DNA of 61,983 nucleotides, the filler included, from Hausera hauseri (taxonomy: Eukaryota), in NCBI GenBank assembly GCA_046269625.1. It is 13 parts of 13 records of this genome, joined end to end, with 100 filler letters (N's around TTAATTAATTAA, not from the genome) between each part and the next. Parts side by side here need not be neighbours in the genome. Positions count along the whole stretch, not along the records: positions 1 to 4,195 come from JBJURY010707992.1; 12 more parts are not named here. One strand, given 5' to 3'. A model generated the notes under the pieces. That model was not told the origin of the DNA. It saw only the letters and a program-made list of their open reading frames with translations, and did no database searches. Position numbers and translations under genes: made by a program. This document shows positions 1 to 50,797 of this stretch, in pieces (position 1 is the first letter of the stretch; each line of letters starts with the position of its first letter).

Positions 1-1134
1 AAATAGATATGCGTTTGAAAATTTTACGATCCGTCGTGTTCCGAGTGAGTGAAAATTTAATTTTATTATTCTAAATAGTAAATTTTGAAATTTAAAATTA
101 GAAATTTTTGTCTGTTTCAAATCAATACAAATATCACAAACGGGAATTGAGGGTTTTTAACATGTTTTATATTTAATAATTCTCATTTCTATTCTTTCTC
201 ATTTTTCAAACTTTTTATATTTCTAAATAGTGCACTTTTCTATCCAATTTCATTAAAAATCTGATAATTCTATTGAATTCACAAGATCCTTATTCTATTT
301 ATTTCGTATAATCTCCCGAAAGGAGAGCTAACAAATTTTGAAGAAATTATCTCCCACCTTTGTTCATTCAGCGGTTTCAAATATCTATCTGCGTCCTTGG
401 TCTCATCAATCAATATATCCTTCCTATTTATGAATAACAAAGAGGTAATATACTGCAAAATATGAATAAAATGTTATCTATTTTTTGATGGTACAGATTC
501 AGCTAGTTAATCAACTCCTTCCCTAAAACAGTGGTCAGAATCTTTAATTGTAGCTCTGGGACATTTGGATAAGTGTCATTTTTGTCACTGTGGCAGAAAA
601 GCAATTGTTGGGATTTAAAACTATTTTAATTAATATTTCAAATGTGTTGTTTTGTTGTTTTATTTGATTTATTTATGAAATTGAAATATTTTTTAATAAT
701 TATTGCTTTACGTGTTATAATTATGGAAAGCTGTGCGGCACATGTATCTTAATATTAAATACTTTACTATATTTAACAACTGTCCGTTGTTTGTTAGTCG
801 ACATTACTAGCCTAAAAATATGCAATATCTCAATGAACATCAGATTACTAGACCGGGATGAGCTTTCAAATAACTTTGTCGCAAAACCGCACAATTTAAT
901 TCTATATATTGTTGTTAAATAATAACTTTAATTCTGTTTGGATAATGTATTATTCTGTTTGTTCACAGGAATCTGTGGGAAAACAGATTGTTGCTGACGT
1001 CGGCGGATTTGCAAATTTACTGCCCATCGCTAAATTGGACCAGCATTTCGACTTAATGGAAACTGTAGCCTCAACGCAATTGGGTAATGGATTTATTTGC
1101 GGTGCAGGTGCAGGACCGCATCATGAATTAACTG

Positions 1135-2072
1135 TCAATTGCGTAATGCCATGAATGAGTTTTTATTACAGATGGACTTGATTTTGTTAAACGGCTTTTT
1201 ATCTGATAGTAACGTGTCCAGATCCGTTATTGCTGCGAGCGTTGTTGGCTGCAGGTATTGTATTAGTGTTAAGGCCTTGTTTAGTTGGCCGGTGATGCTG
1301 CATTGAGTGGCCCATGTTTCAGACACATGGAACCACTTCAATGGAGTTCCGTCCAAATCTATAAAGAAGGTTTGACATGCTAATTTGGGAGGTTTAGCCT
1401 GTGCTAATAATGCAGTTTCGGCTTTTTTGTCGGGCGTGAGTGTCGACGCCTCCTTCTAGTCTGAAAATGGCTAGTATGGTGTTGTTTGAAGTGAATATTG
1501 TGTTGATTGTGCACTTATTCTTATGCAATATTTTTCCATTATGTGAAAATATATGCTCGGGATATTGTTGTTTTAGAACTTTCAGCATATCCGACATGTC
1601 TAGGGTAGGTACAGAGTTGTACTTCGTTTGCCGTACTATGGATCGATGTTGTTTCATAATAGTGAATTTTGTTGGCGATTTCAATCGACTGAAGATTGAG
1701 TAAATGGTTGAGTAGCGACTTTTCGATTATTATGTGTGCTATTTTGGCACCATTAGTATACTCTGGCTTGTATTTTGATTTTACGATGTCGGTATGTGTC
1801 TCAGTGCTAGGATATTTTAGCACTTGTTCAAAATCGCTCACTGTAATAGCCGTAGGGTTAGCGGGTCTCGTGTTATCACTTTTAGTGATGTGAGTATTTG
1901 TGGCAGGATTGTTTTCGACTGCATTACTCTAAATTTTAGCTTGACTGCTGTCATTTCATGTGCGCGGTGTTTGAGCCGGATTGTTTCTAACGGCTGGGTT
2001 TATCGAAATTCCCGAACCAGTCGGTTCGGTACAGTGCGAAATGGACGTGTGTGCGGTATTCGCTGCCACCAT
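1135..2072 (-). pseudogene. gag: Gypsy-type gag precursor: N-terminal extension + ubiquitin-like domain (RLEGG) + capsid N-terminal domain, decayed
   Basis: An ATG at 2072 overlaps the PBS and is in frame with ORF 1539-1841 across two stops. A frameshift leads into ORF 1394-1684 (HIFSHNGKIL...NNTILAIFRLEGG). A 1-nt frameshift near 1440 leads into KPPKLACQTFFIDLDGTPLKWFHVSETWATQCSIT...PFNKIK, which follows the Gypsy capsid pattern P..WF...E......I......K......L......PY..LK. Confidence 0.6.
2061..2071 (-). promoter_or_regulatory. Primer binding site, tRNA-Leu type (TGGTGGCAGCG)
   Basis: 11-nt complement of the 3' end of tRNA-Leu (CGCTGCCACCA), directly after a U5-like T/G-rich tract and just upstream of gag. 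Confidence 0.65.
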
Positions 2073-3422
2073 TTTAGAGTTCTCATCCTTGTGGATGGAA
2101 CTTTTAAATATAAAAAGGATAAACATGTAAACACAGTCGAATAAAACGACTGAAACAAACACTGATAAAACGAGAAAACAATGAGAGAAATTTTTATTCA
2201 ATTCTCGCAAATCGTCCGCCGAGGCGTACGAGTCCTCGGTTGAAGAAAAGGCCTGGTCACTCCTCGGATTTCGGCGCGGACAAGTCGGAATGTCGTCCGA
2301 ACTGGAATCAGTTGATGCTGATTCAAGTCTTGTCGGCTCCAACCGACGTCGACGGAGCGGTATTGAAACTTCGTCTGGGCTGGAGCTCACTGTCCGAGCC
2401 TTCCGCTTGTCAGCGGTTCGACGGTCAGTAATTAAGTGGCTCTCCGAAGGAGCCAGCAATTCGAATAGCCGATTTGTTGCCGCCATCAGTCTTATAAAGA
2501 CTGGCAAGAAGGCGGAAGGGTCGAACAGCCGTCGGCTGTCTTCATCGGCGTAGAACCTGCGAAGATGTCCTGTCGGGAGGCAGTAAGGATTGTTCTCGGG
2601 CAGTCTGCTGAGGTGCCGCACGAAACGGCTCCGCTGCAGAAACTCTCGCACCGTCTGATAATCAGAATAAGAACGGCACGGAGCTTGACGGTCTCGGATG
2701 CGGAGTCGTTTTCCACGGGAGATGGTGTCTCGCCGGGCTGTGTTTTCATTCTTCTGACCGGGTTTGCTCCGCCGAGGCGGTACGCCTGTCGGTATTGTTT
2801 TCCGCTTCGGCGTGCACTGGTCGGAGTACCTTGTGGATGCAATACCCCGAAATCGATGCGGTCTTCTTTTCGCAAATTGTAATGTTTGTTTGGATGGCTG
2901 CATCGGCTAGGAGGACCCTAATATCTTCTCTGATGACCGGTTCGCCGGGTTTTGCTGTTCTGGTCGCGTGAGTTCTCGTTCCATTACTATTACTAGCGAT
3001 ATCGACTCGTATTGTTTTCGTGCCTTCTTTGGTGACGGATACACCGTTTTTCGACAACCTGGTCACTGTGTTCGACATTTCTGACATGTTTGTAGATATT
3101 TTGAATAAATCTGCCCTTTTTTAAACTGTGGATTCAAACAAATGGATTTGAATCCACAGATTTTGAATGTTGATAATTTTGCATGTGCTGGTCACTTCGG
3201 CACTTGTAATCCCAATTTTTAATTTTTCTTTTATTTTTTATCTTTTGTGTAATTTCGTGTGGGAAAAAAATGTGGTGTTTAACGAATCTGTGATTTTGTT
3301 TTTGATACTTGATTTTGTATTTTTGCGTTTACTTGGGATGAATCCGTGATATTAACTGATTTAGTTTAACTTAAATAAATTAAATATAAATTTTAATGTT
3401 TTTTGTAAGGTGGAACCTTACA
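2072..3422 (-). repeat. Long terminal repeat (about 1.35 kb) with a GC-richer, ORF-like U3 interior
   Basis: Starts with TGTAAGG right after a purine tract. AATAAA at about 2193-2198 is followed by about 125 nt of T/G-rich U5 and then the PBS. No second copy is present in the window. Confidence 0.55.
3126..3159. repeat. Perfect 13-bp inverted repeat (hairpin) inside the LTR
   Basis: CTGTGGATTCAAA - 8 nt - TTTGAATCCACAG. Confidence 0.85.
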
Positions 3423-3436
3423 AGGCTCCCCGCCTG
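3423..3436 (-). promoter_or_regulatory. Polypurine-tract-like element (CAGGCGGGGAGCCT) upstream of the LTR
   Basis: G-rich tract ending 3 nt before the LTR-initial TG. Confidence 0.45.
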
Positions 3437-4195
3437 AAAAAAAATAAAATTAAAATCATCCGTTGATTTCAATTTTAAAGTTTACATGACTGATTTGACG
3501 TCATTTAAGTGAAAAGTTATGAAATCCCTTCACAATTTTGTGAAATCGAATCTGTTAAACATACCATTTGCTGATTTAACTTTTTAAACAATTTCGCAAT
3601 GTATTTTTAATTTGGCATTAGCAATGAACGTTAAGTGCTTTTAGAATTTTTTGTGTTGTTGTAAATATTTGTACATTTTAGGAAATACCTTTTGGACAAT
3701 TATGATTTCGATTTTTATTTTATAAATTTGTTACCGACTTTAAATTATTGTTATTTGTCATTCTGTGTAACTTGTTATAAAGTAAATGACCAGAAGTTTG
3801 TTTAAAACTATTCAATTAGTTCTACTTGATCGGTGAAGTGAAGTACTTTTGTCATTGGTTTTTATGAATGATGTATTTTTCAATATAATTCCCGTGTTTG
3901 GCTTTGAGCTTATAATGTTAAATATTGCATTAAACATAAAACCTGTTTAGAAACTCATGGAGACATTTATTTATGTGCCTCATGTGAAATATTACGGAAT
4001 CAACTACGGTGAGTTTACAAAGTTATTCTTCGTTATTCATTTTCCAAAAAGTAAAATGTGGAATTTATACTGTATAAATTTAAGCTTTGCAATTATAACC
4101 CCATTTTTTGATTATTGCAATCACCCTAAAAAGTTCATTTCTTAGCACTTCTTTGAATAATGATAAAATATATTTGTTTTAAATTTGTTTTAATT

Positions 4196-4295: not shown

Positions 4296-5410
4296 CTTTC
4301 TTGTCATATTGTTTTCTAAACTGTTCTTGATATTCTTGGGATAATTCCTTGGCGATCTCACAACACTTTTGCAATCGCGTTTGTAATACTTCTGAGAAAT
4401 TTTGTTCTAAATCTTCGGGATTGACTGTGTATGGCGTCATTCCTAAGTCCGTGGGAAACACGGTTTCACATCCATACGTCATAAAGAATGGCGTAAATCC
4501 CGTTGTTGGATGTAGCGTGGTATTAATTGAAACTGAGTTCCTTCTAAAAATTCGTCCCAGTCTTTTTGGTCCTTGGCCACTACTGTCGATAATATATGTA
4601 CGACGGTAGCATTCGTCCGTTCGACCATTCCATTACACTGAGGATGACATGCAGTGGTCGTTAATCGTTCGACTTCAAATATTTTGGTGATTTTCTCAAA
4701 TAATTCACTTGTAAAATTTCTCCCTCGATCCTTGAGTATCTGGTCTGGGGGTCCGTATCGGCAAATAATTCGTCTCACTACGGCTTTTGCTAAAGTTTCT
4801 GCTTTCTGATCAATTAATGCTAGCAACTCGACGAAATCAGTTAGTCGATCAATTCACGTCAAAATGTGCTTATTGTTCTTGTGAGTCATAGGAAGAGGTC
4901 CTACGATATCCATCGATATGGCTTGCATAAGCCTGTCGGGTACATGAATTGGTTTTATTTTGGCCATGTAATTTTTCGTCTTCTTTTGCTTAATTGCACA
5001 TACTTCACAAGCATTCACCCAATTCTTTACATTAATATAGATACTAGGCCAAGAGTATTTATTCATTATCCTTTCTAATGTCTTCTTCCAGGACATGTGT
5101 CCGGCTAAGTACGAGTCGTGCTCTGACATTAACACTTCGGTTCGTAAACCTTTGGGAATAACTATCAGTTTTCTTCCTTTTCGCTCGTAATATAAAATAT
5201 CTTTGTCGCTCTTGTCATTTAAGACGCAATATTTATGTCTGTGTAAATTTTTCTTTAAATTTTGTCCTCTTGGTATGACATCCTTCTTAGAAAATTCTAT
5301 AATCTGCTGGATGACCTTATCCTTTCTCTGTTCTGTTGAAATTTTAATGGCCTTATCCACCGTCAAAACGCGTTTGCGGTCTATTATTTCTTCAAGTTGA
5401 CTTTTCTTCA
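4296..5410 (-). pseudogene. pol: Integrase (HHCC zinc finger + DDE core)
   Basis: HDSYLAGH...W...CEVC; ISMDIVGPLP; RYGPPDQILKDRGRNFTS; HPQCNGMVERTN. Confidence 0.93.
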
Positions 5411-5830
5411 TTACCGTGATTGCGCTGGTTTGGTCTTTAAGCTAGAAAACGCATTGGCGTCTACGTGTTTGTTTCCTGGCTTATACTGAAATTCGATATT
5501 ATATCTGGAGATTTCTTCGATCCATCTGTTAAGTCTGCATGTCAGATTATTTTCTCGACCCTTCAAAGTCGTAACGGCCTTGTGATCGGTGAGAATTATA
5601 ATTTTCTGCCCGTATACGTAAACATTAAAATGTCGAAGTGCTTCCTTTACAACTAGAGTTTCCAATTCGGTAACAGAATAATTTTTTTCAGCCTTCTTCA
5701 AAGAACGTCCTCCATAAGCAATCGGATGCTCCAATTCTTCATCCTCTCTTTTCTGTGCTCGTTCATAACCAATGCTTTCTTTACTGGCGTCTGTCTTGAT
5801 TATGAAGGGTAACTTAAAATCTGGATATCG
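5411..5830 (-). pseudogene. pol: RNase H domain
   Basis: PDFKLPFIIKTDAS; HPIAYGGRSLKKAEKNYSVTELE; ILTDHKA; KPGNKHVDANAFS. Confidence 0.92.
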
Positions 5831-5899
5831 TAAAACAGGTTCACTTGTTAATATCTTAATCTCGTCAAACGCTTTCTGTTCGACGTCTGTCCATTTCCA

Positions 5900-6683
5900 T
5901 TTAATTCCTTTTTTAAGCAGACGATATAGAGGTGCATTAATTTTTGAATTATCTGGTACATAGGTTGTGTAATATCCGCAGAGTCCTAATCAGTGTCTTA
6001 ATTCCTTCTGGTTTTGTGGTTCCATGCAGTCTGATATTTTATTTAGCAGCGATTTATCCGGTTTCGATCCTCCTTCTCCAATTATATGGCCAAGATAGGA
6101 TACGGCGTTTTGAGCCCATTTGCATTTCTTCGGATTTAACTTCAATCTGGCTTGTTCCAGTCTCATCAGTGTGTGTTCGATATTCCTTTAAGTGTTCCTC
6201 TTCGGTCCTTGATGCTATCATTACGTCATCTAAGTATGCAAAAGCATGATCCAATCCCATTAGCATTTTATTCATAATTTTCGTAAATATAGCTGGTCCA
6301 GTAGTAATACCGAACGTCATGACATTAAATTCATAAACACCATCGTGTGTTTTAAATGCTGCCTTATAGCGGTCTTCGTCTTCTATCTCTACTTGCCAAT
6401 ATTTGGATTGTAAGTCCAGCGTAGTAAACCACTTGGCTCCTCAGAGTCGGTCTAAAGCCTCTTTCACTGACGGTAATGGGAAAGAATCTTTCATCATAAG
6501 ATTATTCAGGGCTTTACAGTCAATACAAAATCGATGTTTTGTGGTACCTTTCTTTTTGACCATGAGGATTGATAAGTACCAAGATCTATAGCTGGGCCTA
6601 ATTATATCGGCCTTAAACATTCGTTCGACTTCCTTTGTTATCTCGGGTTTTATCGAGTGTGGTGGAAGGTACCATTTCGGCAT
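5900..6683 (-). pseudogene. pol: Gypsy reverse transcriptase (stops and frameshifts)
   Basis: IIRPSYRSW...VKKKG...RFCIDCKALN...DSFPLP; MTFGITTGPAIF; FAYLDDVMIAS. Confidence 0.93.
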
Positions 6684-6785
6684 CTTCTGATCCTCAAGAT
6701 CTATTTTTTCATTCGAACCAGGCTTTTTCTTGAGCGAAATAGTCCGTTTTAATGCTTTTTAATATTCTGGCTGATCGTCATCTTG

Positions 6786-7841
6786 CTAGATCTGTGCATA
6801 AATTATTATCTCTGTTCTTGGTGGAATATTTTCGTCTACTGGTATCCACACTTCTCCCAATTTTCTATCCTTAGCGTTTTTTACGCCTTTATTTGGCCTG
6901 ATTTCTATTAGTTTTCCTGTTTGTAAGTCAATTGCAATATTCGGTATCCTTTTCAGTAGATCACATCTTAATACGACGTCGTCAGTTAATTGTTCCATGA
7001 TTGCAAATTCGTGACGAAAAGTTTGTCCAACTATTTGAACTTCTGGGTTCCATTTAAACATCGGTTTTGACATTTGGCCAAAAGCTCCTGTACTTCCTGG
7101 AACCCTTGTAGACGGTGGGTATAATTGTTCTCTCAGCGTTTGAGGTATTGAATCATTTTTGATGTAAGACGTCTCGGAACCCGTATCAATTAATGCATAA
7201 ACTTCCCAATCTTCGATAATAATTTTAGCGAAGGGTCTTCCTTCTATTACCGTTTCGAAACAGTTTGACGCTACTTTTGGGCGTTTAATTACCGATATTT
7301 TATGTCCATTGATTCGAATTTCTGGGGAGGATACTATGTTCTCTTCCAGCTGCTTTAATTCTCCGTTTGGGTAAAGCTCATTGTTTTCAATGCTTAATTC
7401 TGCCGTTTCATGAGTACTAATTAACGGTTCTTGGTTGTTAGTATGTAGTTCAGTATTCTGGAAGGTCTTTAATCTTGAGCTATCCCAAACTGTCGATCTA
7501 GTTTTTATATTTTTGGGTTCTCTCGGTGAATACAACATCTTTGGATCATCTGTGGATTGTAGGTAACACATTTTCCATAGGATCCCGTAACGTTTGGTTC
7601 CTTCATAAGGGTCTTCTACATTAATTGTTCTTTTATAGATTTCCGTCTGATATGAACTCATTGATCGTTTATCGCAGTCTTCATAGAATGGAGCGGTGGG
7701 AGGCAACATAGGTAGTGGCGCCTTTATGACAGAGTATGTCTTATGTCTGTTTATTCCTGGAAGTACTTCTCCTCCCTTAGGCTCATCATCATCTGAATTA
7801 TTCCTTCGTGTACTATGCTTGATGAATTTCCGCTTGTGCAA
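6786..7841 (-). CDS. pro: Spacer + retroviral-type aspartic protease
   Basis: YALIDTGSETSYI active site and DVVLRCDLL (the ILG.D.L motif). Same frame as env upstream and RT downstream. Confidence 0.85.
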   Translation of the reverse strand: MHKRKFIKHSTRRNNSDDDEPKGGEVLPGINRHKTYSVIKAPLPMLPPTAPFYEDCDKRSMSSYQTEIYKRTINVEDPYEGTKRYGILWKMCYLQSTDDPKMLYSPREPKNIKTRSTVWDSSRLKTFQNTELHTNNQEPLISTHETAELSIENNELYPNGELKQLEENIVSSPEIRINGHKISVIKRPKVASNCFETVIEGRPFAKIIIEDWEVYALIDTGSETSYIKNDSIPQTLREQLYPPSTRVPGSTGAFGQMSKPMFKWNPEVQIVGQTFRHEFAIMEQLTDDVVLRCDLLKRIPNIAIDLQTGKLIEIRPNKGVKNAKDRKLGEVWIPVDENIPPRTEIIIYAQI

Positions 7842-7904
7842 GAACGTGGACCTTCTTTTCCGTTTACGATGATAATATCCGATATGGCGTTCTACGTCCG
7901 TTTT

Positions 7905-8790
7905 TCATTTGTTTTCTTCGTATGCCTTTAAGAATTTTCCAAAGGGTGTTATGATTGCAGTCAATACCTTACATGAAAATCCAGTCAATGTAAATATTTC
8001 ATAGCCATTTATTACTGCTTGGATGACTGCTTTAATTATCTGTATCAAGAAATATATCGCTAAGAATCCGGATGCCGCTTTTCCGAATATCAGAAACCTT
8101 CCCCACATTTTGTAAAGTATTTCGGTTGTTACTCGCTGATAATGGTTTACACTGAGTAAAGATTCCCATTTAGCCTGCTATCGTGTATCATCGACTACCG
8201 AAGCCATAAATCGATTTAACTCATGTGTTTGTTGTCGTGGAAAGGCAAGGAATTGTCTAAAAGCCTCAATTTCCTTCGGTCTGTATATACCTTTCCATGA
8301 GGTGTCTTGAAATTTATATGTAATTCCTTTCGCGAGATTTGTTCCTTTCAATTTATTTGAAGCGGCAATAATACCTCCATTCGGTAAGCTAACCCAATCT
8401 GTCTCACTACGTCTAAACATAGGTTCTGCTAAGCTTGCCTTACAATTTTTAAGGATGGTTGGTTGGGTAGCGTTATCCAATAACACTCTCGTCAGCGGTG
8501 TAGCTAATCTCTGAATACTTTGGTAAATAACAGGAAGTTCTTGAATGCAACGTTTTTCTCTCATGTTAATAGGTACATCTCTCTTTTCACATTCGTAGGT
8601 CAGCAATACTTCACCTGTAACCCGACCGAAGATTCCTTCTCTCGTGGGAATTATTGGAGAAGCCAATTCTGGATTTGCATATATTAAAGCCATTTTAATT
8701 CTCATAATTTCCCTATCCAATTTGCAGTCATTCATTATCATTTTATGATATAATTTCGTTATTTCAACTTGCCCTTTATAGTAGAAGTAA
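7905..8790 (-). pseudogene. env: Envelope glycoprotein, C-terminal half + transmembrane region; chuvirus/Monjiviricetes-like class III fusion protein
   Basis: LYHKMIMNDCKLDRE...NPELA...GIFGRVTGEVLLTYEC...CIQELPVIYQ...PLTRVL...C....PMF...W...GIY...IEAFRQFLAFP...LN, then WGRFLIFGKAASGFLAIYFLIQIIKAVIQAVINGY. This follows the chuviral G consensus motif by motif. In-frame stop at 8178. Confidence 0.82.
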
Positions 8791-8890
8791 NNNNNNNNNN
8801 NNNNNNNNNNNNNNNNNNNNNNNNNNNNNNNNNNTTAATTAATTAANNNNNNNNNNNNNNNNNNNNNNNNNNNNNNNNNNNNNNNNNNNN

Positions 8891-14100: not shown

Positions 14101-14357
14101 TCCAATCCTGGGGGTGGCCCAGTGCGCTGCCTTCCTCCTCGCCCTTCTGTATTTCCGTTTTTTTAAATAATAAACATAATTGCACAAATACATCAACACA
14201 CCTAAACACTGCGGCCATCTACAACATCATCTCCACTTTTCTTTTCTCACCTGAATTTTACCTCACACACCACGGCTCCACAGTACCTCTCGTTGGGACC
14301 CTGCAATTTTTTTCATCTTATATCTGCCTTTACATATACTTCCGCATCCGTGGTGGT

Positions 14358-16589
14358 ATGGACTCATCACCACTATTAATACCACGGACAAACTCACCAA
14401 ACCACCGATTTCCATCACTTACCTACCCAAACAAAGTGCTTCAAACACTCCGACACAGCGCACACTCCCTACTCATTCGCCCTCCGCAGAATATTTCCTC
14501 GACAGACAAAATTCTACTCAAACTTGGCTAAAACTGCATCAATTCTGTCTCCAATCATAAAACGTCGTCGACCCCTTATCCAAAGTCAACAGCCTGTTTT
14601 TTCATTTACCCGCTTTTATCAAAACTAAAATTACAAACATCACCGCCGTCCTTCACCACACCAATCCATATGCTCAACTTTATAATGCCGTTCTTAAGCT
14701 CACTGAGTCGTCAATCGACTCTATCATTCAAAGGTTCTTCAATGACAACGCAATGGGCCTACAGAAGCATTCTGAATTCTTGCGCACATACCCACAATAC
14801 CCATGGCGTAACATCTGAGCATAGTCCAGAACTTCTTTGTCGTTAATTTTTAAACGCATTGCACCTTCAAATAAGAGCTTTGCTCACTGTGGTGCAGGAC
14901 TCCACGGCACTGGAAAAGTTAGACGAACTGGTGGACAACGCCTATAAAGTGCTGCACTCACACACAGCACCAACTGTCTCTGCGGCATTAAAAACAAACC
15001 ACCAACAACAAAATGCAATGCTGCAGCAACAAATTGCGCAATTACGCACAGACAACGAAATTTTGCAAAAAACAATTAATAACATAAAAGAGAAATTAAA
15101 TGAGTTAACGCTGCCTCGACGAGGTTATTCTAGAGCTGCTTCCCCTCATGTATTTCATCAACGACAAAGACGGTCGCCTTCGCCCGCGCGGTCGTCTATT
15201 TGCCACTATCACAACAAATTTGGAAACAATGCTCAGAAATTCTGCATCGGTTGTAAGCTTTACTCCACCGATTTTAATACAAGCAACATCGTTTGCATCT
15301 ATCACGCAAAATTCGGAACAAAAGCACAAAAATGCCTACCTGGCTGTAACTACAACACGCAAAATAAAATCAGCACTATTAACCACACACAAAATAGTAG
15401 GCCAAACTTACCAGCTACAAAAAACTGATTTCGCCGCTAGGACACACGGCAAGTTCTATCAAAGGCAACAACCTACAAAAAGATAGCCGACACATTTCTT
15501 TTGCTGTATTCACGTTGGAAGCAGCAGTCATCACTCCAACAAAGCAAAACATTAATTTTCTCATAGACACCGGCGCAGCAATCTCTTTACTACCACCAAC
15601 ACAGCACATCCAAAACAATTTCACTTCAAAAAAGCAACTGTTTACTGCGTCCGGTGAACCTTTACAAATTTTTCGTGTTATTAAATTTACTTTTACACTC
15701 CCAAATTTTCCAAACACATTCACTTGGAAATTTACAGTAGCCAATGTACGCACACCTATATTTGGTTCAGACTTTCTGTCCCACTACAATTTACTTCTAG
15801 ATTGCAAACTATCTTCCTTAAATAGCGGAAATAATTTTAATCAAATTAGCATTATTTCGGTGACCACCCGAATGATCGTTTCCAGCAAGTCAATACTAAA
15901 GAAAACGACTTCCGATTTAAATTATTTTTATAATCATACATTATACAGAAATTTTTATTAAGGCAACAAATACGATATTGCCAACTGCGTGGCACCTATT
16001 ACTGATAGCACAGCTGCCAACACCATCTTCAACACGAACATCCATCTTCAACATCCACCTTGTCACAACACCTTGACTACAACTCATACCTCAGCTGCAT
16101 ACAGTCACGATGCATAGACACCGCCTGATAAATTTTCATCGTTGCACTCTGACTTACAGCAATATATCTCGTCTTCCTGCACGCGTCTGTTGCAAAAGGA
16201 CAAATCATTCGTATCACCTCAATCCACCTTCCATCACATAGTACCAACACATCAAAGACCAATACGTCAAAAGGTTCGCCCGCTATCGCCTCCACGCAGA
16301 CAGGCAGTGGAGGCTGAGGTTCTCGAACTTGAAAAATCAGGAATAATCAGAATATCCAAATCCCCCTGGTCTTCACCACTGCATGTGGTTCCAAAAAACA
16401 TGGTACCTTTTGCCCATGCAGTGATTACCGCCAACTCAACATCATAACAACAATGGACGCCTACCCTCTACCATTAAACAATAATATCCTTCACAGGCTT
16501 TATGGTTCAACCATATTTTCCTACATTGATTTTCACAAAGCATACTATCAATTCCGGTGGACCCCAGTAGACATTCCGAAAAAGGCTGT
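14358..16589 (+). mobile_element. CsRn1-like Gypsy element: gag (two CHCC knuckles) - protease - start of RT; decayed and truncated by an insertion
   Basis: CHYHNKFGNNAQKFCIGC and CIYHAKFGTKAQKCLPGC; FLIDTGAAISLLP; SKSPWSSPLHVVPK, DYRQLN, DAYPLP, IFSYIDFHKAYYQ. Confidence 0.88.
15419..15425 (+). promoter_or_regulatory. -1 ribosomal frameshift slippery site A_AAA_AAC at the gag/pol junction
   Basis: Lies immediately before the gag stop (15426-15428). The -1 frame from 15422 is open into the protease ORF at 15515. Confidence 0.7.
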
Positions 16590-17186
16590 TGTGGTGCCGC
16601 GGACTCGGGCGCCACCATAGTCCAAGTAGATCTGAGAAAATCAAGAAACTGTACAAGAGACACTTAATTTTGAAACCAAACTTGCACCCATTAAATCTAA
16701 AATTAAAACAATCCCTGATTCTGAAAAATTGATTGCAAAATCCACGCATTGAGCGTAACCAAGTCAGTTGCTGATAATCCAGATTCCTGTGCTGTATTGT
16801 ACAAAAATCTCTTATATTCAAAAGAAAAATTGTTAATTTTGTTGCTACCGTATCTGGTTTTGAGGCAGTTATGAAAATCTAATCTCAGTGTGTAGAACTA
16901 AATAATGATGATATCCTACGTCTCCTCTTCTGAAACGATTTGCTCTTTGTAAACAAGACGATGAATTAGGAACGCTGCCTGATTTACGCAAAAATAATAA
17001 ATTACTTCTGTGAGGATATAATTGAGAACAGAAATTCTAAATTTAAATCAGAAACATTTCCAAATTTAAATTAAAATATTAATTTAAAAGTAATATTAAA
17101 AGTCTGATTTAAATTTGGAAAATTTGTTTCCAAATAAATATTTTGAATGATAATAAAAAATTTTCAACAAGTGTTGTTACTTTTCA

Positions 17187-18790: not shown

Positions 18791-20468
18791 CAAAATCTGG
18801 TTGTAAGTTTTATTGTCTGTCCGATCGTTGACGTGGAATATATTCCCCTTGTCGTTGAGTGGCTGACACTGACTCGTATCGTCTTTTGAATCAAGCTAGT
18901 AATTCATCCTCCTCTGCACTTTACCCATCCTTCAACATTGACCTTTAATGCTCTTGTGGCTATTTCTATGTTTCTTTCTATTTCTTCTTGATTCGGGTTT
19001 ACACCATTCATTACCATTATTTTATATAGAAGATATGGCTGTTATAATTTTGTTACGGGATATACCTGTTCCCATCATTCTGGATAAAATATCTCTTGGA
19101 TTTCGTTTATTCTCTCGTCCGTAGGGATATCTGCAAATTGCTCGCTAACCTTTGCGATTTCATTCCTTATAGCTTGTATTAATGAGTCTGGTATTTGCAG
19201 ATTAGTGTTGAACTTGACGAATGCTTTATGCATTCTTACTAATAAAGTTTGTGGTAGTGTTGCCAAAGATACATTATTTACATCGTATTCATCTTCTGTT
19301 GTCAGCAATCTTCTGACGACTTCATCATCTCTGGCTTTTCTACCCTTTAATTGATAAAGTTTTGTTGTTCCTTTTGGTTTTCCACGCGTTCTTTTATCTG
19401 TTTGTATTTGTTCAGTTATAGGGATATTCATTTCAGTTCCTATTTGTGGTGTTCCTTGATGCTGTCCATGTTCTTCCATTTGTTTCTGTCTGACATCGGT
19501 TGTAATCTCATCGATTGCCTCTTGTTCAGATTGTCTATAAATAATGCATATCGGGTTATATCTGTTTTCCCAGATCCCTACCTCATATAACGTTTCATAG
19601 TCCATTAACACTCTTCCATAGGAACGCAAATCTAATTCTCCTTGAGGTTGTTTTATCTCATTAATTTTATGTTTCAAAGCATCTATCGTATCTAATGACT
19701 TCATTCTTAAAACATGAAAGTCTTGATTATATTGTTGGAGAGTAATCATTACTTCTGGATTTTCTCCGAGTGTTCTCACTCTTTCTGCGTATCGATAAAT
19801 TATATATCGTACGACTTTCTGATATGGGCTTGTGCTCGCAGCATACATTAGCAACAAATCTAACAAATTAGCAAATTGATGATGACTGATTGTTGGTAAC
19901 AATAACATTGAGAGGTCCTGTCTGAACTGAACTCCATCAATTAATTTCTGATTAGCATAACCAGATATTCTTCGAACTATTTCCACGCCATCCTGGTCTA
20001 AGCCTATAGATGAACTATCATATTCCAGTGGTCGTTCTACTTTCTTCTTATTTTTCCTTTTGGTTTAGTTTCACTTTCCACAGACTCACTTCCAGAAGGT
20101 AAATTCGTTTATGGGGTATTTAACTCTTCTTCTATAAGAGGTTTATGTTTCCTCTTTACTTTCTTCTTTTCAGTTTTCGATTCTGATTCAGGAAACTTTT
20201 TAGGCCTACCAACCGGAGCTACAATAGTATTTTCATTCAACATTTTGTCTCTGTTCACAAATCTGATGTTTCTTTAATTCAATATTGCTGTTTTAATTCA
20301 GCTATTTTATCCTCATCGTCTAACGTATTAGTCTTACTTTCCTTTAGTTTTGATCTAATCTTTTGCTGACGTTTTTCTATCGTATCTTCAGGCTTTGTCT
20401 GTGGTTTCATGTTCTTTATCTGTATCAGATATATTACCAATCATTTCGACTTGTTTCTTTTGATTAGA
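18791..20468 (-). pseudogene. Gag extension: AT-hook (PVGRPKK), helical domain, ubiquitin-like domain (19534-19752), second basic hook, helical domain
   Basis: VMITLQQYNQDFHVLRMKSLDTIDALKHKINEIK...LDLRSYGRVLMDYETLYEVGI aligns with ubiquitin PSDTIENVKAKI...LIFAGKQLEDGRTLSDYNI. Confidence 0.75.
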
Positions 20469-23066: not shown

Positions 23067-25538
23067 CAACATTGGCCTTCAAGGCTCTTGTAGCTACTTC
23101 TATATTTCTCTCTATTTCTTCTTGATTCGGGTTTGCACCATTCATTACCATTATTTTATATATGAGATAGGATATTGCTGTCAGAATTTTATTTCGGGAT
23201 ATACCAGTCCCCATCATTCTTGATAAGATATCTCTCTCCTGAATTTCATTTATCCTCTCATCTTTATGTATGTCTGAAAATTGTTCACTAATCTTTGCAA
23301 TCTCATTCCTAATAATTTGCATTAATGAATCCTGTATTTGTAGATTGGTATTAAACTCAACAAATGCATTATGTTGCCAATGATACATTATCTACGTCAT
23401 ATTTATCTTCTGTTGTTAGCAATCTTTTAACAACTTTGTCATTTCTGACTTTCCTACCTTTCAACTGATAAAGTTTCATCGTTCCTTTTGGTCTGCCATG
23501 ATTTCTTTTATCTGTTTGTATTTGTTCTGATATGGGAATGTTCGCTGCCCTTTCTATTTGTTGGGCCTCATGTTGATGCTCAGTTTCCTGTGTTCCCTTT
23601 CGCCTAACATCAGTAATAATTTCGTCAATTATTTCTTCGTCCGACTGCTTGTAAGTGATACACACAGGATTGTATCGGTTTTCCCAGATACCTACTACAT
23701 ACAATGTTTCATTATCCATGAGAGTACGTCCATAAAAACGTAACTCTATTTCTCCTCGAGGCTGAACAATCCCATTGATATTATTTTTCAATGTCATTAT
23801 TGTATCCAATGACTTCATTCTTAGAACATGGAAATCTTGGTTATACTGTTGTAACGTAACCATTACTTCAGGGTTTTCTCCAACTGTCCTCACTCTATCC
23901 GCATAGCGATAAATTATGTATCGTACAATATTCTGATATGGGCTTGTACTCGCAGCATACATTAACAGCAAATCCAGTAAATTAGCAAATTGTTGATGGC
24001 TGATTTTTGGGGATAGTAGCATAGACAGATCTTCTCTAAACCCAGTATTATCAATTAGTTCTTGGTTGGCATAGCTGGATATTTTCCGAACTATTTCTAC
24101 GCCATCCTAGTCTAAATCCACAGATGAAGACTCATAACTTGGGGATTTTTAATTTATTTTTTTTTCCTTATTCTTTTTATCTTTTCCTTGGGTTTACTTT
24201 CTTCACTTGATTCACTTTTTTCACTTTCACTTCCCGAACGCAGGTTAATTTCTGGGGTCTTCAGTTCTTCTTTTTGTATCAAAGGTTTATTCTTTTTCTT
24301 GACCCTTTTCTTTTCAACATCCCATTCTGATGCGCGAGTCTTTTTAGGTCTACCAATAGGAACAATGAGTGAGCTTTCATCCTTATTTTCTGTCTTCTCT
24401 CTCAGGTTTGTTGCTCCTTTAATTCAAAGTACAGCTGTTTTAGTTCGGCTAGCTTATCTTCATCCTCTATCGTATTAGTTTTACTTTCGTTTAATTTGGA
24501 TCTGATGTTTTGTTGTAAATTTTCAATCGTTTCTTCGGGCTTTATATCTGTAGTTTCATGTTCATTATCCGTGTTAGATATATTACCTACTATATCAGCG
24601 TTCTTTTCTTTTGACTTGACTGTCCTTGGTTAGGGCAGGTACAAGCCATATGCCCATATTTTTGACATGCAAAGCATAGTGGTTGCCCATTTTGATTAAC
24701 CGTTGGTTTCCTCATCGCGGATTTTTGAGGTTTGTCTTGTTGCCATGTAACCTTCTTCTGCTGTTGTCTTGTTTGATTCTGAATTTTATAGAACGGTTTT
24801 TGAAATTTTTTCTTTAACTGAGGGTTTTTCATCTTTTTAGCATCAGTTTTGGGAGGCTTTTTGGTATTTTCTAATCTTTCATAATTCAATTCTATCTTCC
24901 TGGCCTTACTGACAGCTTCTTTATATGTGTCAGGATCAGCAACTATAATATAATTTTGTATTTCCTTAGTAACCCCATATCAAAACTGAGCCGGAGGGCG
25001 TCTTCTTTATGTCATCATCTGCATAGGCTCTCTGAGCTAATTTCTGAAGGGCACATGCATATTTTTGCACGCTTTCACCTTTTCTATGACGTCGCCTGTT
25101 AAACTCTCCAATTCGACCTTTTCCTGATGGGTCTACTAAGAGTCTTTCTTCCAGGACGTCCTTGAGGCTAGCCTAATCAGCTTTTTCATCATCCGTAAGC
25201 TGAACGTTAGCACTAAGTGCTATTCCTTTAAGATGCGAGGGAAGACGTTGTATATTGAGCTCATCTGACCATGCGAAGCTTTGTGAGTACATTTGGTATT
25301 GCATTAAAAACTTACTATAATCTTCGTCCGGTTTTCCTTCAAACTTATCCATCGGAAGGACCATCGTACCAGTTGCATTTGAGGCAGTTCCTATTCCAGA
25401 GCTAAACATTCGGTTCCTTCCTATTTGAGTGTTTCGTTCAACCAAGGGAGTTTCGTCTGATTCAGAGCTACTCCGTGCTGAATCAGTGAGTGAAGTTGCG
25501 ATATTAGCGTTAACTCTGCTTCGAGTGTTATACGCCAG
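23067..25538 (-). pseudogene. gag: Gag + AT-hook + ubiquitin-like extension, copy B
   Basis: ORFs 25173-25445, 24590-24889, 23369-24022 and 23067-23388 are near-colinear with copy A. Confidence 0.85.
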
Positions 25539-27205: not shown

Positions 27206-27446
27206 NNNNNNNNNNNNNNNNNNNNNNNNNNNNNNNNNNNNNNNNNNNNTTAATTAATTAANNNNNNNNNNNNNNNNNNNNNNNNNNNNNNNNNNNNNNN
27301 NNNNNTCTGTCAATGATTTATCGGAATTGCACGGTGAGTCCTGTTTTTGTTTATAGAACTCCACACAGTTTTTTTATGTTCTTAAAATATGTATATATAT
27401 AAATAAATTACTAAATTATCAATTAGAAGTTAGTGGAATTTTTAAT

Positions 27447-30400
27447 ATGCTAACGATCGGCACCAGTCTAGTATTTTTATTCATTGGGACATATTCTCAA
27501 AATCAAATTTATGACTATAAGTACTGCATTATTGGAGCTGGACCAAGCGGACTACAAATGGCTAGTTTTCTTCAAGAAAAGCAGCGTAACTATGTCGTGT
27601 TTGAACGAAATTCTATTCCTGGAAGTTTCTTTGATAAATGTCCTCGACATGATACATTAATAAGTATCAACAAAATTTACACAGAATCCAAGAACTCCGA
27701 GTTTAACTTGCGACATGATTGGAATAGTTTGATAACTGAGAAAAAAAATTCAAAATTTCGCTTTTATTCCGATAATTATTTTCCGGACAGAAAGGAGTAT
27801 TTAAATTATCTCTCGGATTTCTATAAATACGAAAATCTTAACGTGCCTTTCAAAACATCAATAGAAGTTATTCAGAGGAACCATTCAGAAGATTTGAGAT
27901 GCGCCAATAGCCCACTAAATGTTGCAGTTGGATTTCAAATGAGTTTCACAGCGACAGTTGATTCTGGAACGACTGCGTGGTTAATTTTGAATCCTGATCC
28001 GACGAACCCTACGAAAAACATGACTATTGGAACGGTACCAGCTGTCAATTCTGCTTACGTTGTTAATCAAACTTATTCTACTGTGGGGGTTTATACACCA
28101 GTGATATCCATTTGTAACGTACTTGGTTGTCTGAACTGCTCAATCAACATGCAAGTTCAATATTTAGTTATTAATTCAGATTTTCAAATACAGACAAATG
28201 GATATTATGATTCAGCATTTGCCAATTGTTCATCAACTATCAAGTTTAGTGGAACTAATTTTCCCACTGGCTTGACTGCTACGTTTAACTACTCAGACGG
28301 TTCAACGCCAAGCAGCGTAACTATAACTGCAGCTCAAATACCTTTTACGTTCGTTCGCCATCTTATAACTTACGGATTCGGCACCGTAAATATTGTACTA
28401 TCAAATTTGGTCAGCTCACAGAATTATTTGGCACAGGTTGGGGCTTTCCAAAAATTCAGTAGTTTTTCAATTATGGTTACATGGGGTGTACAAAGACTTC
28501 CTGGATTCGGAAGTGGAAATAATCAATATCCAGCAAAGCAGGCTCTTTATTTTCGACCATCAGCACCATCTGTTGGTACTGTTGTCGGTTACATCTTTAT
28601 GTATACCCCAACGACGAATTTAAGTGCGATATACACGTGCAACGTTACACTTACCAATGGGGAGTTTCCGTTCGTTTTTACTGAGATCGGATCATATAAC
28701 GTTAGTTTATTGGCTTACAATCCAATCGACCAAAGAATATCATACATGGTTGTTAACATTGGAGGAAGTATTCGGGACATGATGATTTTAGCCCCCTCCA
28801 AACCGCTGTATCCAAATGTAAAGGGAACCGTAATTATATCTTGGTCAGTCATCGACACTACAGCTTGTATCTGTGTTGATATGGGTAACAAAACAAAATC
28901 GATATACGGAGCCACTCAAGGATGCACAAATTGTCCCTCGTACAATTATACTGGGCAGGTTCCAGTAAACAGTCAACTTGTGCTCAATGTCCAGTATATC
29001 GCAATTGTCAGTTATACCATTAAAGTATTGGCGTATAATAGCATAGAAAGTGTCATGGAGAACCGCACAGTTACTGCGTCCTATAGTAATTGCAATCTGC
29101 CAGTCATAACTACAAACAATAACAGTGTACAAACTGCATTTATTTCATATCGTGGAAGTCAAACAATTATAAGTGCGCAAATTGTTGATTTACCATGTAG
29201 TGTAACATTAAACAATACAAAATTATGGACTGCAGAAGTTCTTGAAACCACATATTATCATCCTGTCGGATCAGTTGATCTGTCTAGTATTGACACGCGC
29301 AACAACACTCAGATCATTATACCCCCATTATTTCTGAATTACGGATTTTATCGATTTCGATTCACCGTTACCATGGATACAAATTCCACTGGTGGATATA
29401 TTTTTAACAATTATAACTACACCTATATACAAATAATTGCAAGTCCTCTAGTTGTCACTTTCACATTTGGTGGTATCACAATTATGTTTGCTGGATTAAA
29501 TCAGACCATATCGTTGGATCCGACAAAGTATTCACACGATCCGGATGTGGCAGTTCAGAATTTTTCCAACTGGACTTGGTCGTGGGGTTGCAGAAATATT
29601 AATGAAACCGAAAATTTAGTAAATTTTGTGTATCAAAAACCACAGGGTTACAATTTCCCTGCCATCAGAACAGGATGTTTTGGAGACGGACCAGGACGTG
29701 TAAATTTCAGTATTCCCGCGACATTTTTCGGAACAAACATGATTGATGGGAATGAGTATGTCGTGTCTGTTAATGCAACGACAGTGGATGGCCGTAAAGG
29801 CACAGCGAAAATAAATCTTAAAATGGTTCCGGGAATACCTCCAAATATTATTATTCAATGCATGAGACCGAAGACATGTGCGATTAACCGATTTGGTCCT
29901 TACATGTATCAAGAAGTAGCGTTTAACCCATCTGACGATTTACTGGTCAATGCGTCATGCAGTATGCCTGATGGAACTGCCTGTGTTAATGGGATGTGGA
30001 AGTTGACATTATTTAATGAAACAACGAATACGTATTCGACACTAACACAAAGCCAGACGAGTTCTTATGTTCGAGGTTACACTTCTCTGCAAATGTCTTT
30101 ATTGACAAATTTCTTTTCCGACTACTACACTTATAATCGATTTCGTATTTGTTACGTCGTCACACTACCGTCGACATATGGTGTTTCGTGTATCCAATTT
30201 TACGTTGTTCCGCTACCGAGTAATGTAAGTTGCACAGTTGATAAAACGGTGGTAAGTTCAAATGATCAAGTCTGTCTCCACTGTGCAGCTCCAGCATCAT
30301 ATACATACAGAATTTACGGCAGTTCGCAGAACCAAATGACACCAATTGGGTCTAACAACAGTGGCATATTTTGTAGCATCATCCCGTATCAGATTACTCC

Positions 30401-31412
30401 TCAGGCTTACTACGTTCAGATTACGAATGCCAATGGAGGCTACATTACAATCAATGTGGCCAATATTACTGTTACTCCGATGAATGATTCACAAATAAAT
30501 TTAGTACTTGGTGGATTAATGAATGGTCCAGATCAGAATCTAACACTAACAAGTTTTAAAGGAGATTATAAAACAATGTCACAAATATATTTAAAGTATA
30601 CGTCGGTAGTTACTGCCTCAATCACTAGTTTAATGGCCGCTTCGTTAAATAATTCCAAACAGACATATGGAGGATCTGGATACAATTTTGTCCCTACAAC
30701 GACGAGTCCCATTGTAACTATTGACGAGTTACCAACAAGTAAAAGAAACCAACGAGATTCACTGAGTGGGATCATAACACAAATGACGGCTAATCTAAAA
30801 GACACGGTTCCAGGGGATATCGTTGGTCTCGATTGCATGAATCGCAACAGTCAGTCTCATGTTGCATCCAAAATACTTCATTTAGCTGGAAACCTCAGAG
30901 ATATGCAAGGTTCGGCGTCCAGAGATGATGTTCAGCAGATTGCCACCAATTTGCTTTCCGCTAGTCTTCAAACAGATGCGGCGGCGAATATTCAAATAAA
31001 GACAGGAATAAAACGTGATATCCAATATTCAAAGAAAAACTTCCTGGATTATGATACTAGTTTGAATAGCAATGCACCATCATATATGTGTGTGGATAAT
31101 TATCAACAAGCCAGTAATCTTTTAACAGTTGACACGAATGCAGGTTTTCAGACTAAAGTGGCATCCGGCATTGGTAGTACAGGTGCATCGACCAGAAGTA
31201 TAGTTACAAAAGTTTTGAGAGATATTACAGTAATCGATGATAAAACGTTGAACACTGTCTATTTCGGTGTACGAGAATTAGTTGTAAGTGAATGGGAACA
31301 ACTGTTAACTAATGAAAACATCCCAAACCATGCAAAAAATTCTGATTGCAAATTGGCCCACTTATCTCATTCTGTCACAATGGATCATTTACGTCCAACT
31401 CGACGCTCATCC
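27447..31412 (+). CDS. Chimeric ORF (more than 1320 codons, 3'-partial): signal peptide + FOXRED2-like FAD-binding N-terminus fused to four PKD-like domains and a REJ module of a polycystin-1-like protein
   Basis: YCIIGAGPSGLQMASFLQ...FERNSIPGSFF..PRH..LISINK.YT...N.EFNLRHDWNSL is the FOXRED2 signature, up to about 27900. Then repeated Y...G.Y.V...A.N PKD motifs and the REJ motifs IIPPLFLNYGFYRFRFTVTM, ISLDP..YSHDPD, WSWGC. Confidence 0.8.
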
Positions 31413-31512
31413 NNNNNNNNNNNNNNNNNNNNNNNNNNNNNNNNNNNNNNNNNNNNTTAATTAATTAANNNNNNNNNNNNNNNNNNNNNNNNNNNNNNNN
31501 NNNNNNNNNNNN

Positions 31513-33556: not shown

Positions 33557-34935
33557 TCAATTCGCATCGAGTAATTCTAGTTGTTCACGATTGAAAATAC
33601 GCAGATGGCAGTCGTCCGATAATTTGTCTGTGCAATCTGAATACGATCTGAGGAAATCGGGTACTTCTTGGTTAACTTGATCTAATCTACCGATTGAACC
33701 AGAAGCAAGACTGATGTCCTTCGTATCATCAAAGAAGCGGACAGCCCGTCCAACATTTCTACATCTACCAGTTCGACTGATTCTATGAACGTATGTATCA
33801 ACCTCTTGGGGCATGTCAACGTTGATAACGACATCAACTTTAGAAATATCAGCAACGTTCGTTGCAATCATATATGTAACTCTGTCACTTTTAAAGTCAT
33901 TCAATGCTGATTCTCTCTGCTGTTGATCACAGTCACCGTGGATTGTTGTTACCATGCAACCCAGGTAACCCAATTTTATATCTAAAAAGTCAGCCATTCT
34001 TTTATTTCAACAAACACCAACGTTTTCTGATCGGGAATCGTTTTAACATACTCTAATGCTACATTCAACTTCTCTTTCGGCTCCACACAGATCACTTGTT
34101 TAACATCACTGTTAGCAGACCCGACAACACCAACGGCCACAATTAAATAGTTTTTCAACAAATTCCTTGCTACATCTTGAATTGCTGTGGGAAAAATAGC
34201 ACTGAACCTAGATATTTGAATAGTTCTATCATCACCAGCAAAATTGATTTCTCCATAAACTTTTTTCACGCTTTCATAAAACCCTTCAGAATCTAGCATG
34301 CGATCGGCTCCATCCAATACAAAATATTTCAGATGCCTCAACGAGATCCACACAAGTTGCAAGAAGTGAATCAATCATCCGGGGGTGGCAACAAGTATGT
34401 CATAACCATCGGTTTGTAAATTTCTAGATTTATTCATTTTAACACCACCATAAATATATGCATATTTCAAATTTGAACCACGAGTTAATTTTCTGGAAAC
34501 TGCATACATTTGGCGACAAGGTTCTCTCGTTGGAGCCATAATCAATGTTTTTGGGAAGGTAACATTTGATTGAGGATTTTCAATCTCACTCTGATATTTA
34601 TTCAAAGTAACAATGATTGGCATCAAAAACGCGAATGTTTTCCTAGGACCCGTTTGAACACGGCCCATCAAATCCCGGTGTGAAGTTATAATTGGAATGG
34701 CATATTTCTGCACCGGTGCAAATTTGGTATATTTCAACTCTTCAATGTTTTTCTGTAAGAATTCTGGCAAGTCTAAGTCTGAGAATTTGTTTATTGCTGG
34801 TGGAACATTTTCTCCGGTAACCTCAGCGGTAATCTTTTCATAATTGTGGAAATTAATACCTGAATTAACGTGTAAATAATAATCTCCTTCGCCACCATTT
34901 GAAACGTACATTGCTTTCTTTGGTACTGCCAAATC
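33557..34935 (-). pseudogene. vasa: Intronless vasa/DDX4-like DEAD-box helicase pseudogene
   Basis: SGINFHNYEKI.AEVTGENVPPAI.KF, PVQKYAIP, RDLMG..QTG..KT.AFLMP, APTRE, YGG, DILVATPG*L, VLDGADRMLD, FSAIFP..IQ, VAVGVVGSANSDVKQ, TIHGDCDQQQRE, YVHRISRTGRC.NVGRA. Catalytic motifs are mutated, there is a stop at 34375 and a frameshift near 33990. Confidence 0.88.
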
Positions 34936-36343
34936 GTCATTTTGACTATCAAGCTTGGCTTCTTTGCTACCACGAAAAAAGTCTTAGAAGACATTATTTT
35001 TTATCAACATTTACACCTACCAAATTTACCGGACAAACTTTCGTCATCACCAATTGATGTTTTTATAATGTATTTAAAGTTCGTAGTAAATTTGAATGGT
35101 TCAGCATTGGGTAATTTCGTCAATTTAATTCTTATAACAAGGATTTTCTTCATTTCGTAATATACCTTTGAATTTTTCAAATAACAGGATAACCTCGTCA
35201 TTATAATATTAATCTTTCTACAATTTATTATTTCATCAATTGATAAGAAAATAATTAAAATTAATGTTCTGGAATGTATTCTTGTAAGCTGGATTACTTG
35301 TGTGGACAAAATTGGAACCAACAGATAACATTGGAGCCAACATTGGTAAGTCTGTGTGTATTATGTTATCAAGTGATAGAAAATAATGTCGCACGTGATG
35401 ATCATTAAATATCACGAAAAGCTCATTAAAAATCATTAAAAAGTCATTAAATTTGATCTTGGCTTTTTTGTAGATACCCTGCATGTAGTGGAGTTGACCT
35501 GACTGAACACAAACCAACCATTAGTATAAGAAAATAAAAACTGTGATGTTTCCAATGAGTTCTAGCATTTTCTTTATCTGTGGCTTCTGATTGCAAAGTT
35601 TTCATTGAACACGAGTAGATTAATGCAGTTTTCATTGTTTTGTTTTTTTGTGACAATCCATTGATGTCAGTTAAGTTTAGTTCAGTTGAGTCGTAAGGAT
35701 CAACATATTTGCACAAGGGTATGTATCCATAAGTGCTCCATTCTGGAGAATCCCTGCTCAGTGCACAAAATGTTGGGTATATTATTCTTAGAGTTTTTCC
35801 AGGCAGCGACCTTTAGGCCAACTCTTTTCTGATTACCGACTCCTGCGTCTTTTAACGTATGCAATGTACACAGGCATCTGATCTCACTATCCAAGAAGCA
35901 TCAAGGGAAATTTTTAATATAAGATTCACCTGGATTTGAACCCCTTACTTCTAACACTCGAGGTGGACATCTTACTGAATGTCATTATTGAAAATAGATT
36001 AATTTATTATACTACATGTAAGTATTTTAAATTAATGTATCTTTTCTATTCTCCAGAATTTGTTTTGAAGATTTTTATATTCTACACAAAGTGAGAGGAA
36101 GCAAAGTAAAGAAAAACGTCTCAAAGTGAGCCCCCTGGTGGCCATTTTGTGTAATAACCAGCAGAGAACATTCTTTTAAATATTGCTTCAACTAAATTTA
36201 GTTGCAGATTTTAGCAGCTTTAGTGCAAATTAGTGATAGGAAANNNNNNNNNNNNNNNNNNNNNNNNNNNNNNNNNNNNNNNNNNNNTTAATTAATTAAN
36301 NNNNNNNNNNNNNNNNNNNNNNNNNNNNNNNNNNNNNNNNNNN

Positions 36344-50523: not shown

Positions 50524-50797
50524 AATTATTTTGGATATTTTAATTCCAGTTTTACGAAAATAAATTTCCCACTTTGCTGGGTTTTAGAAATTGCTGTTAG
50601 TAGATTTTTATTCATATTGCATCAGTCATTTTCAACAGGAAAAAATTTTGTCGCGGAAATTGAAGCACAAAAAAATTTCAGATTAGATTCATAGAGCAAA
50701 GAGTTGGATCCGACTACTGATCCGACGCAACGATAGCGGAAGCCCGGCCCTGCTCAACCAAATCTGTCAAAGGGCTCCGGATGCTGTGGGCACAACA
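50524..50797 (-). repeat. 5' part of the 3' LTR of the adjacent Gypsy element
   Basis: TGTTGTGCCCACAGC... begins directly after the purine tract GGGAGGTGA (50798-50806), downstream of integrase. Confidence 0.7.

Follow-up and report, generated by a model that had tools for sequence, protein, structure and literature searches.

A Gag Fragment in the First Contig

The stretch of Hausera hauseri DNA analyzed here (61,983 nucleotides, hereafter the window) consists of contigs of 4–6 kb joined by N-linkers and is rich in decayed retroelements. Our finding lies in the contig at 1–4195, on the minus strand, and as its joins to other contigs are N-linkers, the content of neighboring contigs has no physical linkage to it. 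In this contig, the minus-strand frame 1397–1726 encodes a peptide with RLEGG at its C-terminus and Gly-Gly at 1453–1448, just as it had been quoted in a sequence-only reading of the window. A capsid-like frame at 1138–1455 matched the Pfam family DUF7041 with E = 0.0022, which is under the curated cut-off of 28 bits. That reading had the capsid begin one frameshift after the ubiquitin-like (Ubl) domain, and the DUF7041-type capsid frame does differ from the RLEGG frame by one frame, but there are two frameshifts in this copy, not one. The features of the locus, together with those of related and comparable domains elsewhere in the window, are collected in Table 1.

Table 1. Features of the window copy, the second DUF7041 element and the GG-less domains. 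Positions count along the window; P0002 is an intact relative described in the text.
Feature	Position	Strand	Remark
Putative 5′ LTR/leader, GC-rich, starts TG	2075–3086	−	LTR ends inferred
Upstream leader frame, start MSEMSN, like P0002 start MSNHMSN	2749–3087	−	Overlaps next frame; no Pfam match
Stop-free leader frame, continuous with Gag frame	2073–2906	−	276 open codons; hydrophobic 19-mer near end
ATG overlapping primer-binding-site-like TGGTGGCAGCG	2061–2072	−	Encodes MVAA, compare P0002 residue 129
Thr/Asn-rich Gag linker, two stops	1626–2060	−	70/136 aligned residues identical to P0002 129–271
Ubl domain, first strand EVQLC (AVQLF in P0002)	1611–1625	−	In linker frame; frameshifting deletion follows
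Ubl domain, helix to C-terminus, ending RLEGG	1448–1606	−	30/50 identical to P0002 294–344
Gly-Gly, predicted cleavage site	1448–1453	−	Present also in P0002 and second element
Junction with frameshift parting domain from capsid	1432–1447	−	P0002 continuous here
Spacer, then N-terminal domain of the capsid (DUF7041); cut short near 1170	1168–1431	−	73/88 identical to P0002 351–439
Second element: candidate Ubl domain, 74 residues, ending FRIRGG	14136–14357	+	Met directly follows
Second element: decayed Gag, aspartic protease, RT fragment	14358–16617	+	Weak DUF7041; two CxYH-type knuckles
GG-less Ubl domain	19570–19728	−	Pfam ubiquitin match
GG-less Ubl domain	23687–23842	−	Pfam ubiquitin match; close relative of preceding domain
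GG-less Ubl domain	~40500–40750	+	No Pfam ubiquitin match

As a dead 5′ fragment of a DUF7041-type Gypsy retrotransposon present in many copies, the window copy is of value as a pointer to its family. It carries two stops (1958–1956 and 1931–1929), two frameshifts and a truncation in the capsid near 1170; loose ends occur close to the truncation, at 1178. Compared with P0002, ~13 codons, including the domain's second strand, have been deleted between 1611 and 1606 with a shift of frame, and bases 1684–1607 of the originally quoted reading frame are off-frame because of this deletion. Pol is absent from contig 1–4195, and no second LTR was found in that contig or in the window. The region assigned to the 5′ LTR stands out by a GC content of 0.47–0.59 over 2251–3000, versus 0.21–0.35 in most flanks; other copies diverge from the window copy at ~2240–2248, and joints occur at 2077–2213. 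The TGGTGGCAGCG motif at 2071–2061 is a putative primer-binding site.

That the family is multi-copy follows from the many sequencing contigs that were placed on 600–2300 (932 of run X1 and 128 of run X2). At the junction, 7 of the 43 contigs from X1 and 1 of the 6 from X2 differed in length from the window; few of the contigs extend by 31 letters in both directions, and we treat them as side evidence. At position 1456, the Glu codon of the window is replaced by one for Lys in all 11 X1 contigs listed there, and P0002 also has Lys. No RNA run was listed as containing the sequence, which carries no information on expression. No substitution at the six Gly-Gly bases is listed among the contigs, in a table that omits differences near contig ends. 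The summed X1 contig depth over the capsid piece at 1170–1400 was ~1e5, compared to ~1e3–5e3 over the remaining Gag; this peak may represent a high-copy sub-fragment, a non-autonomous derivative, or relatives sharing the conserved part.

An Intact Relative and a Second Element

A protein query in which the frames of the window copy were bridged with X returned one match among 581 candidates, the 648-residue protein P0002 (E = 2e-56). P0002 was recovered independently by a profile search of 1.84 billion representatives, which gave two matches; the other, P0003, is a salmonid repeat protein without the Gly-Gly and DUF7041, and we judged it a chance match. P0002 was the single intact protein in these searches, 1 of 581 and 1 of 7,994 candidates. 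A homologue search with the window frame alone yielded none from 31 candidates, and no related loci were found in scans of metagenomes (0 of 42 and 0 of 127 stretches), viral contigs (0 of 125) and prokaryote genomes (0 of 33); another scan of viral contigs gave two confirmed stretches and no loci.

P0002 is 68% identical to the X-bridged window protein over 159 residues, with no notable gap across the Gly-Gly. In one frame it has a 128-residue leader, MVAANT at residue 129, a Thr/Asn-rich linker, a 73-residue domain (272–344) with the C-terminal sequence PKLKGG, a spacer of ~20 residues, DUF7041 (E = 1e-4, again under the curated cut-off of 28 bits) and two CxYH-type knuckles. This single-frame order means that the fusion is real in the family, and the expectation of the sequence-only reading, that other copies would have Ubl, Gly-Gly and capsid in frame, is thereby borne out by a natural intact protein. 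Conservation between the window copy and P0002 varies along the protein (Table 1), with the capsid part 83% identical. Within the leader, residues 8–41 of P0002 form a tandemly repeated 18-residue unit that has no Pfam or PDB match. In our judgment the unit resembles the N-terminal helix region of histone H2A, and it is possible that the repeat is a scrap of a host gene.

A second DUF7041 element was found in the contig at 12981–17940, with matches to DUF7041 (E = 0.14), an aspartic protease (E = 0.015) and RVT_1 (E = 2e-4). It is related to the C-terminal half of P0002 at 27% identity (E = 2e-10). Its candidate Ubl domain is marginally similar to that of the window copy (p = 0.026) and not significantly similar to that of P0002, and the ESM Atlas gave no usable match for it. 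The assignment of this domain as Ubl is weakly supported and draws mainly on its position and its tail.

The tails of the three domains are PKLKGG (P0002), FRLEGG (window copy) and FRIRGG (second element); none is LRLRGG. The Gly-Gly is therefore kept in all three proteins, as the sequence-only reading had anticipated, and in each of them it belongs to a tail of the type basic-Leu/Ile-x-Gly-Gly, followed by Val, Thr or Met and never by Pro. The motif [KR][LI]xGG occurs three times among the 123,962 codons that the window has in six frames, and two of those occurrences are directly before the two DUF7041 domains found. The presence of a motif of the RLEGG type before the DUF7041 capsid is not chance, with the qualification that the motif was chosen after both cases were known; a looser motif gives 16 matches.

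Fold of the Domain before the Gly-Gly

The sequence-only reading had likened the peptide to ubiquitin and had predicted a beta-grasp fold. Pfam ubiquitin (PF00240) matched neither of the GG domains in the window nor P0002, which means that the domain is at best a very diverged Ubl domain and not ubiquitin. A match of the P0002 domain to Pfam ThiS had an E-value of 0.26. In addition, the residues at what we take to be the Arg42/Ile44 patch of ubiquitin look changed in the domain, as judged by eye.

We nevertheless consider it likely that the domain has a beta-grasp (ubiquitin-like) fold. This is because several signals agree, although each is weak and none is significant alone. In the ESM Atlas, residues 268–344 of P0002 matched a ubiquitin cluster at 0.90 and ubiquitin and Rad60-SLD clusters at 0.88–0.89, below three unnamed clusters of 74–79 residues at 0.91–0.93, on a scale where 4–10 of 100 shuffled proteins reach 0.9. 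A profile built from all three domains, compared with 177,635 PDB sequences, gave four matches at E ≤ 10. Two of them were eS30/FUBI (E = 0.3) and a ubiquitin fusion (E = 0.42), aligned over positions 6–75 to the Gly-Gly, and the other two were unrelated EpCAM fragments. These Ubl matches appeared only with the second element's domain in the profile, a weak hint that this domain belongs with the others; PDB searches with single sequences and with two other profiles found no Ubl protein.

A structural model of the P0002 domain had low confidence (pLDDT 55.9) and the order E-E-H-E-E-E-E. Foldseek gave many Ubl rows for this model, the best match having E = 0.6, and VIA gave a best Z of 3.2 (rmsd 2.9, 57 residues aligned), with 28 of the 50 matches listed being titled Ubl, UBX, PB1, SUMO, FERM or RBD by manual count. 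Foldseek against viral models found nothing at E ≤ 0.001. A model of the window frame (pLDDT 42.6), which included off-frame residues, was uninformative.

The same scores leave some room for the domain being a fast-evolving Gag spacer that is not ubiquitin-like and ends in Gly-Gly by chance. The weakness of every fold score, the shuffled proteins that reach 0.9 in the Atlas and the single-sequence PDB searches without Ubl proteins are all in keeping with a spacer. We regard this as very unlikely, however, as four methods agree on the fold class, a length of 73 residues fits it and the aligned domain ends exactly with the Gly-Gly.

Proposed Host Cleavage after the Gly-Gly

We hypothesize that the Ubl-GG unit, ~20 residues before the capsid, is a site at which a host deubiquitinase cuts after the Gly-Gly, so that capsid-nucleocapsid is freed. 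From the comparisons made here we estimate the probability of this reading at roughly 55%. If the fold is as predicted, it is rather probable that a cut after the Gly-Gly takes place, and the cutter would be a USP or UCH enzyme of the host instead of the aspartic protease of the element. With such a cut, the capsid would begin at a defined residue (Thr, Val or Met), however long and variable the leader translated before it. The families OTU, Ulp1 and UCH were not found in 29 frames from related elements, all of which were fragments.

An analogy with pestiviruses makes such a cut plausible. As outlined in PMC8310069, ubiquitin located internally in pestivirus polyproteins is cut by host hydrolases, giving NS3 its authentic N-terminus, and the diverged Ubl protein FUBI is described as being cut from eS30 by USP36 (PMC8354635). 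USP enzymes are described as reading both ubiquitin's C-terminal tail and its Ile44 patch, and the patch restricts which of them cut (PMC10611586).

Our own data also hold points against cleavage: conservation of the domain is just above that of the linker and far below that of the capsid, the Arg42/Ile44 surface of the domain looks changed by eye, the searches yielded a single intact protein, and the candidate domain of the second element is weakly supported. It may be that the domain has a true Ubl fold and stays attached, as a module for folding, interaction or proteasome targeting, with the Gly-Gly as a leftover or a flexible linker. Its high divergence from ubiquitin, without a Pfam match, would suit an attached module, many of the fold neighbors are integral Ubl, UBX or PB1 domains that are not cut, and the Burro-like family described below keeps a Ubl domain without Gly-Gly. 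On the other hand, the basic-Leu/Ile-x-GG tail has been kept in two Gag lineages that are ~27% identical, while the remaining domain drifted, and we consider attachment unlikely on that account.

The similar conservation of domain and linker would also be expected if the domain were a passive captured scrap or vestige, with the working Gag starting at or after the Gly-Gly and the sequence upstream being untranslated or dispensable. The second element, which has no in-frame Met before its candidate domain and a Met right after the Gly-Gly, has the arrangement of such a vestige. In P0002, by contrast, the frame is open from the first residue onwards and Met is absent between 297 and 462, and so the N-terminal capsid domain must be translated through the Ubl domain. 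For this reason a vestige appears improbable.

A cut after the Gly-Gly would leave a free GG end on the leader-Ubl product, and its main purpose might be to release that product as a decoy for, or a conjugated tag on, the host ubiquitin system; Burro elements are described as carrying several ubiquitin-system domains (PMC6431247). We think this quite improbable. Activation by E1 is unlikely with a surface so far from that of ubiquitin and no profile match, and the leaders of the window copy and P0002 are unrelated.

Release of the capsid by a host enzyme, our preferred reading, would matter in several ways. In retrotransposons, the maturation of Gag is normally the work of an aspartic protease that the element itself encodes. 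If the hypothesis is true, a host-enzyme step has been added to Gag maturation, at which the host could control transposition; it would also supply a reason for the tolerance of long, variable leaders. In addition, what is an accident at the level of strains in pestiviruses would here have become a fixed feature of a lineage.

Comparison with Known Systems

The principle of a cut after Gly-Gly is already known from pestiviruses, and the presence of a Ubl domain in a Gypsy element is already known from Burro. In the cytopathogenic pestiviruses BVDV Osloss, CP1 and CP Rit, as presented in PMC8310069, a ubiquitin-type unit ending in Gly-Gly is likewise found inside a polyprotein, directly before a viral protein. 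The pestivirus insertions are described there as recent, nearly identical to host mRNA, confined to single strains and located before NS3. The domain reported here is in contrast old, highly diverged, a feature of a retrotransposon family and located before the capsid, and its cut is predicted.

FUBI-eS30 (FAU) and the ubiquitin-ribosomal protein fusions are parallels to the proposed cut, with a diverged Ubl leader that, as described in PMC8354635 and PMC10611586, is removed by a host USP after the Gly-Gly. FUBI-eS30 and a ubiquitin fusion were also the only full-length matches of the PDB profile (E of 0.3–0.4). FUBI differs in being N-terminal with the tail RxLGG, whereas the domain here sits inside the protein, behind a leader of 143 residues or more, and has the basic-Leu-basic-GG tail type of ubiquitin.

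Burro/GYPSM1, a giant Gypsy element of planarians, is described as having a ubiquitin/SUMO-like domain in the ORF that contains Gag (PMC6431247). In the layout given there, the Gag is of the Retrotrans_gag and CCHC type, the Ubl domain is downstream, between MATH and BCL-2, and env is in frame. P0002, unlike Burro, has a DUF7041 Gag, a Ubl domain upstream of the capsid and a Gly-Gly, and it ends at 648 residues.

The GG-less family in the window fits the Burro layout described in PMC6431247. Its domains lie downstream of a Gag of the Retrotrans_gag or CCHC type, in contigs that are not joined here to the contig with env, and the two with a Pfam ubiquitin match had E-values of 3.6e-4 and 0.036. 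At 4296–8834 (−) there is a Gypsy pol with a remnant of a Monjiviricetes-type fusion glycoprotein upstream of the protease (Pfam E = 1e-20 and 5e-17), which is a Burro-like layout. Comparison of the GG domains with the GG-less domains found no significant similarity (nine pairs, p = 0.04–0.84 uncorrected; hhalign probability 0.1%). The sequence-only reading had proposed that the two were captured independently, and this is likely, as Gag type, position and tail all differ; the argument is one from architecture, since divergence among the domains is too great for building a tree.

The features shared with other DUF7041 (PF23055) Gags are the N-terminal capsid domain, the knuckles of CxYH type and, as far as the second element is concerned, a protease followed by RT. 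We take PF23055 Gag proteins to belong to the Mag-like clade of Ty3/Gypsy elements. Ordinary members typically start shortly before the DUF7041 domain and differ in this from the proteins here, in which a long leader and the Ubl-GG unit are ahead of the capsid. A Ubl-GG unit before a retrotransposon capsid was not found in searches of the open literature; Repbase, subscription papers and supplements could hold one.

Leader and Translation Start

The 276 open codons upstream of the primer-binding-site-like motif were reached in 2 of 2000 Markov simulations. Translation of the precursor would begin either at the ATG of the putative primer-binding site or farther up in the LTR. Between their ends the leaders of the window copy and P0002 show no relationship (p = 0.5–0.9), and no Pfam family matched the leader frames. 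Each of the two leaders has a hydrophobic stretch at its end, with a Kyte-Doolittle value of 2.65 for the 19-mer of the window copy; T-rich DNA could explain these stretches (the window DNA is 46% T there).

Tentatively, and with the odds against it, these observations can be combined into a broader scheme, in which a group of Gypsy elements is translated from the very start of the LTR through a freely changing and possibly membrane-anchored leader. The old, diverged Ubl domain would then act as an insulator cut by the host, so that sequence captured by the LTR could be translated without spoiling the capsid. Capsid maturation would in this way have passed to deubiquitinases of the host, in an event separate from the capture of a Ubl domain in Burro.

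Other Elements in the Window

Several additional elements were observed in other contigs. At 50524–53400 (−) there is a remnant of a further Gypsy element that extends from RNase H to integrase (rve E = 2e-5, Integrase_H2C2 E = 1e-7); the ORFs upstream of it are unrelated, and no Gag is visible. A frame of 981 codons at 42521–45466 (+) encodes an endonuclease and a reverse transcriptase, and is presumably a non-LTR, RTE-like element. Fragments similar to DNA polymerase B are present in two contigs (47773–48672 and 58754–61576) and are 82% alike over 507 bases; we assume that they represent the protein-primed DNA polymerase B of the Polinton/Maverick type.

Two of the observed frames resemble cellular genes. 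An intron-less, frameshifted DEAD-box helicase at 33557–34983 (−), with motifs that we take to be of the vasa/PL10 type, is probably a decayed retrocopy. The open frame of 1,367 codons at 27357–31460 (+) combines an N-terminal piece of an FAD-oxidoreductase (Pyr_redox_3 E = 2e-13) with a PKD/REJ-domain protein (E = 1e-22) and is possibly a chimeric or retrocopied gene.
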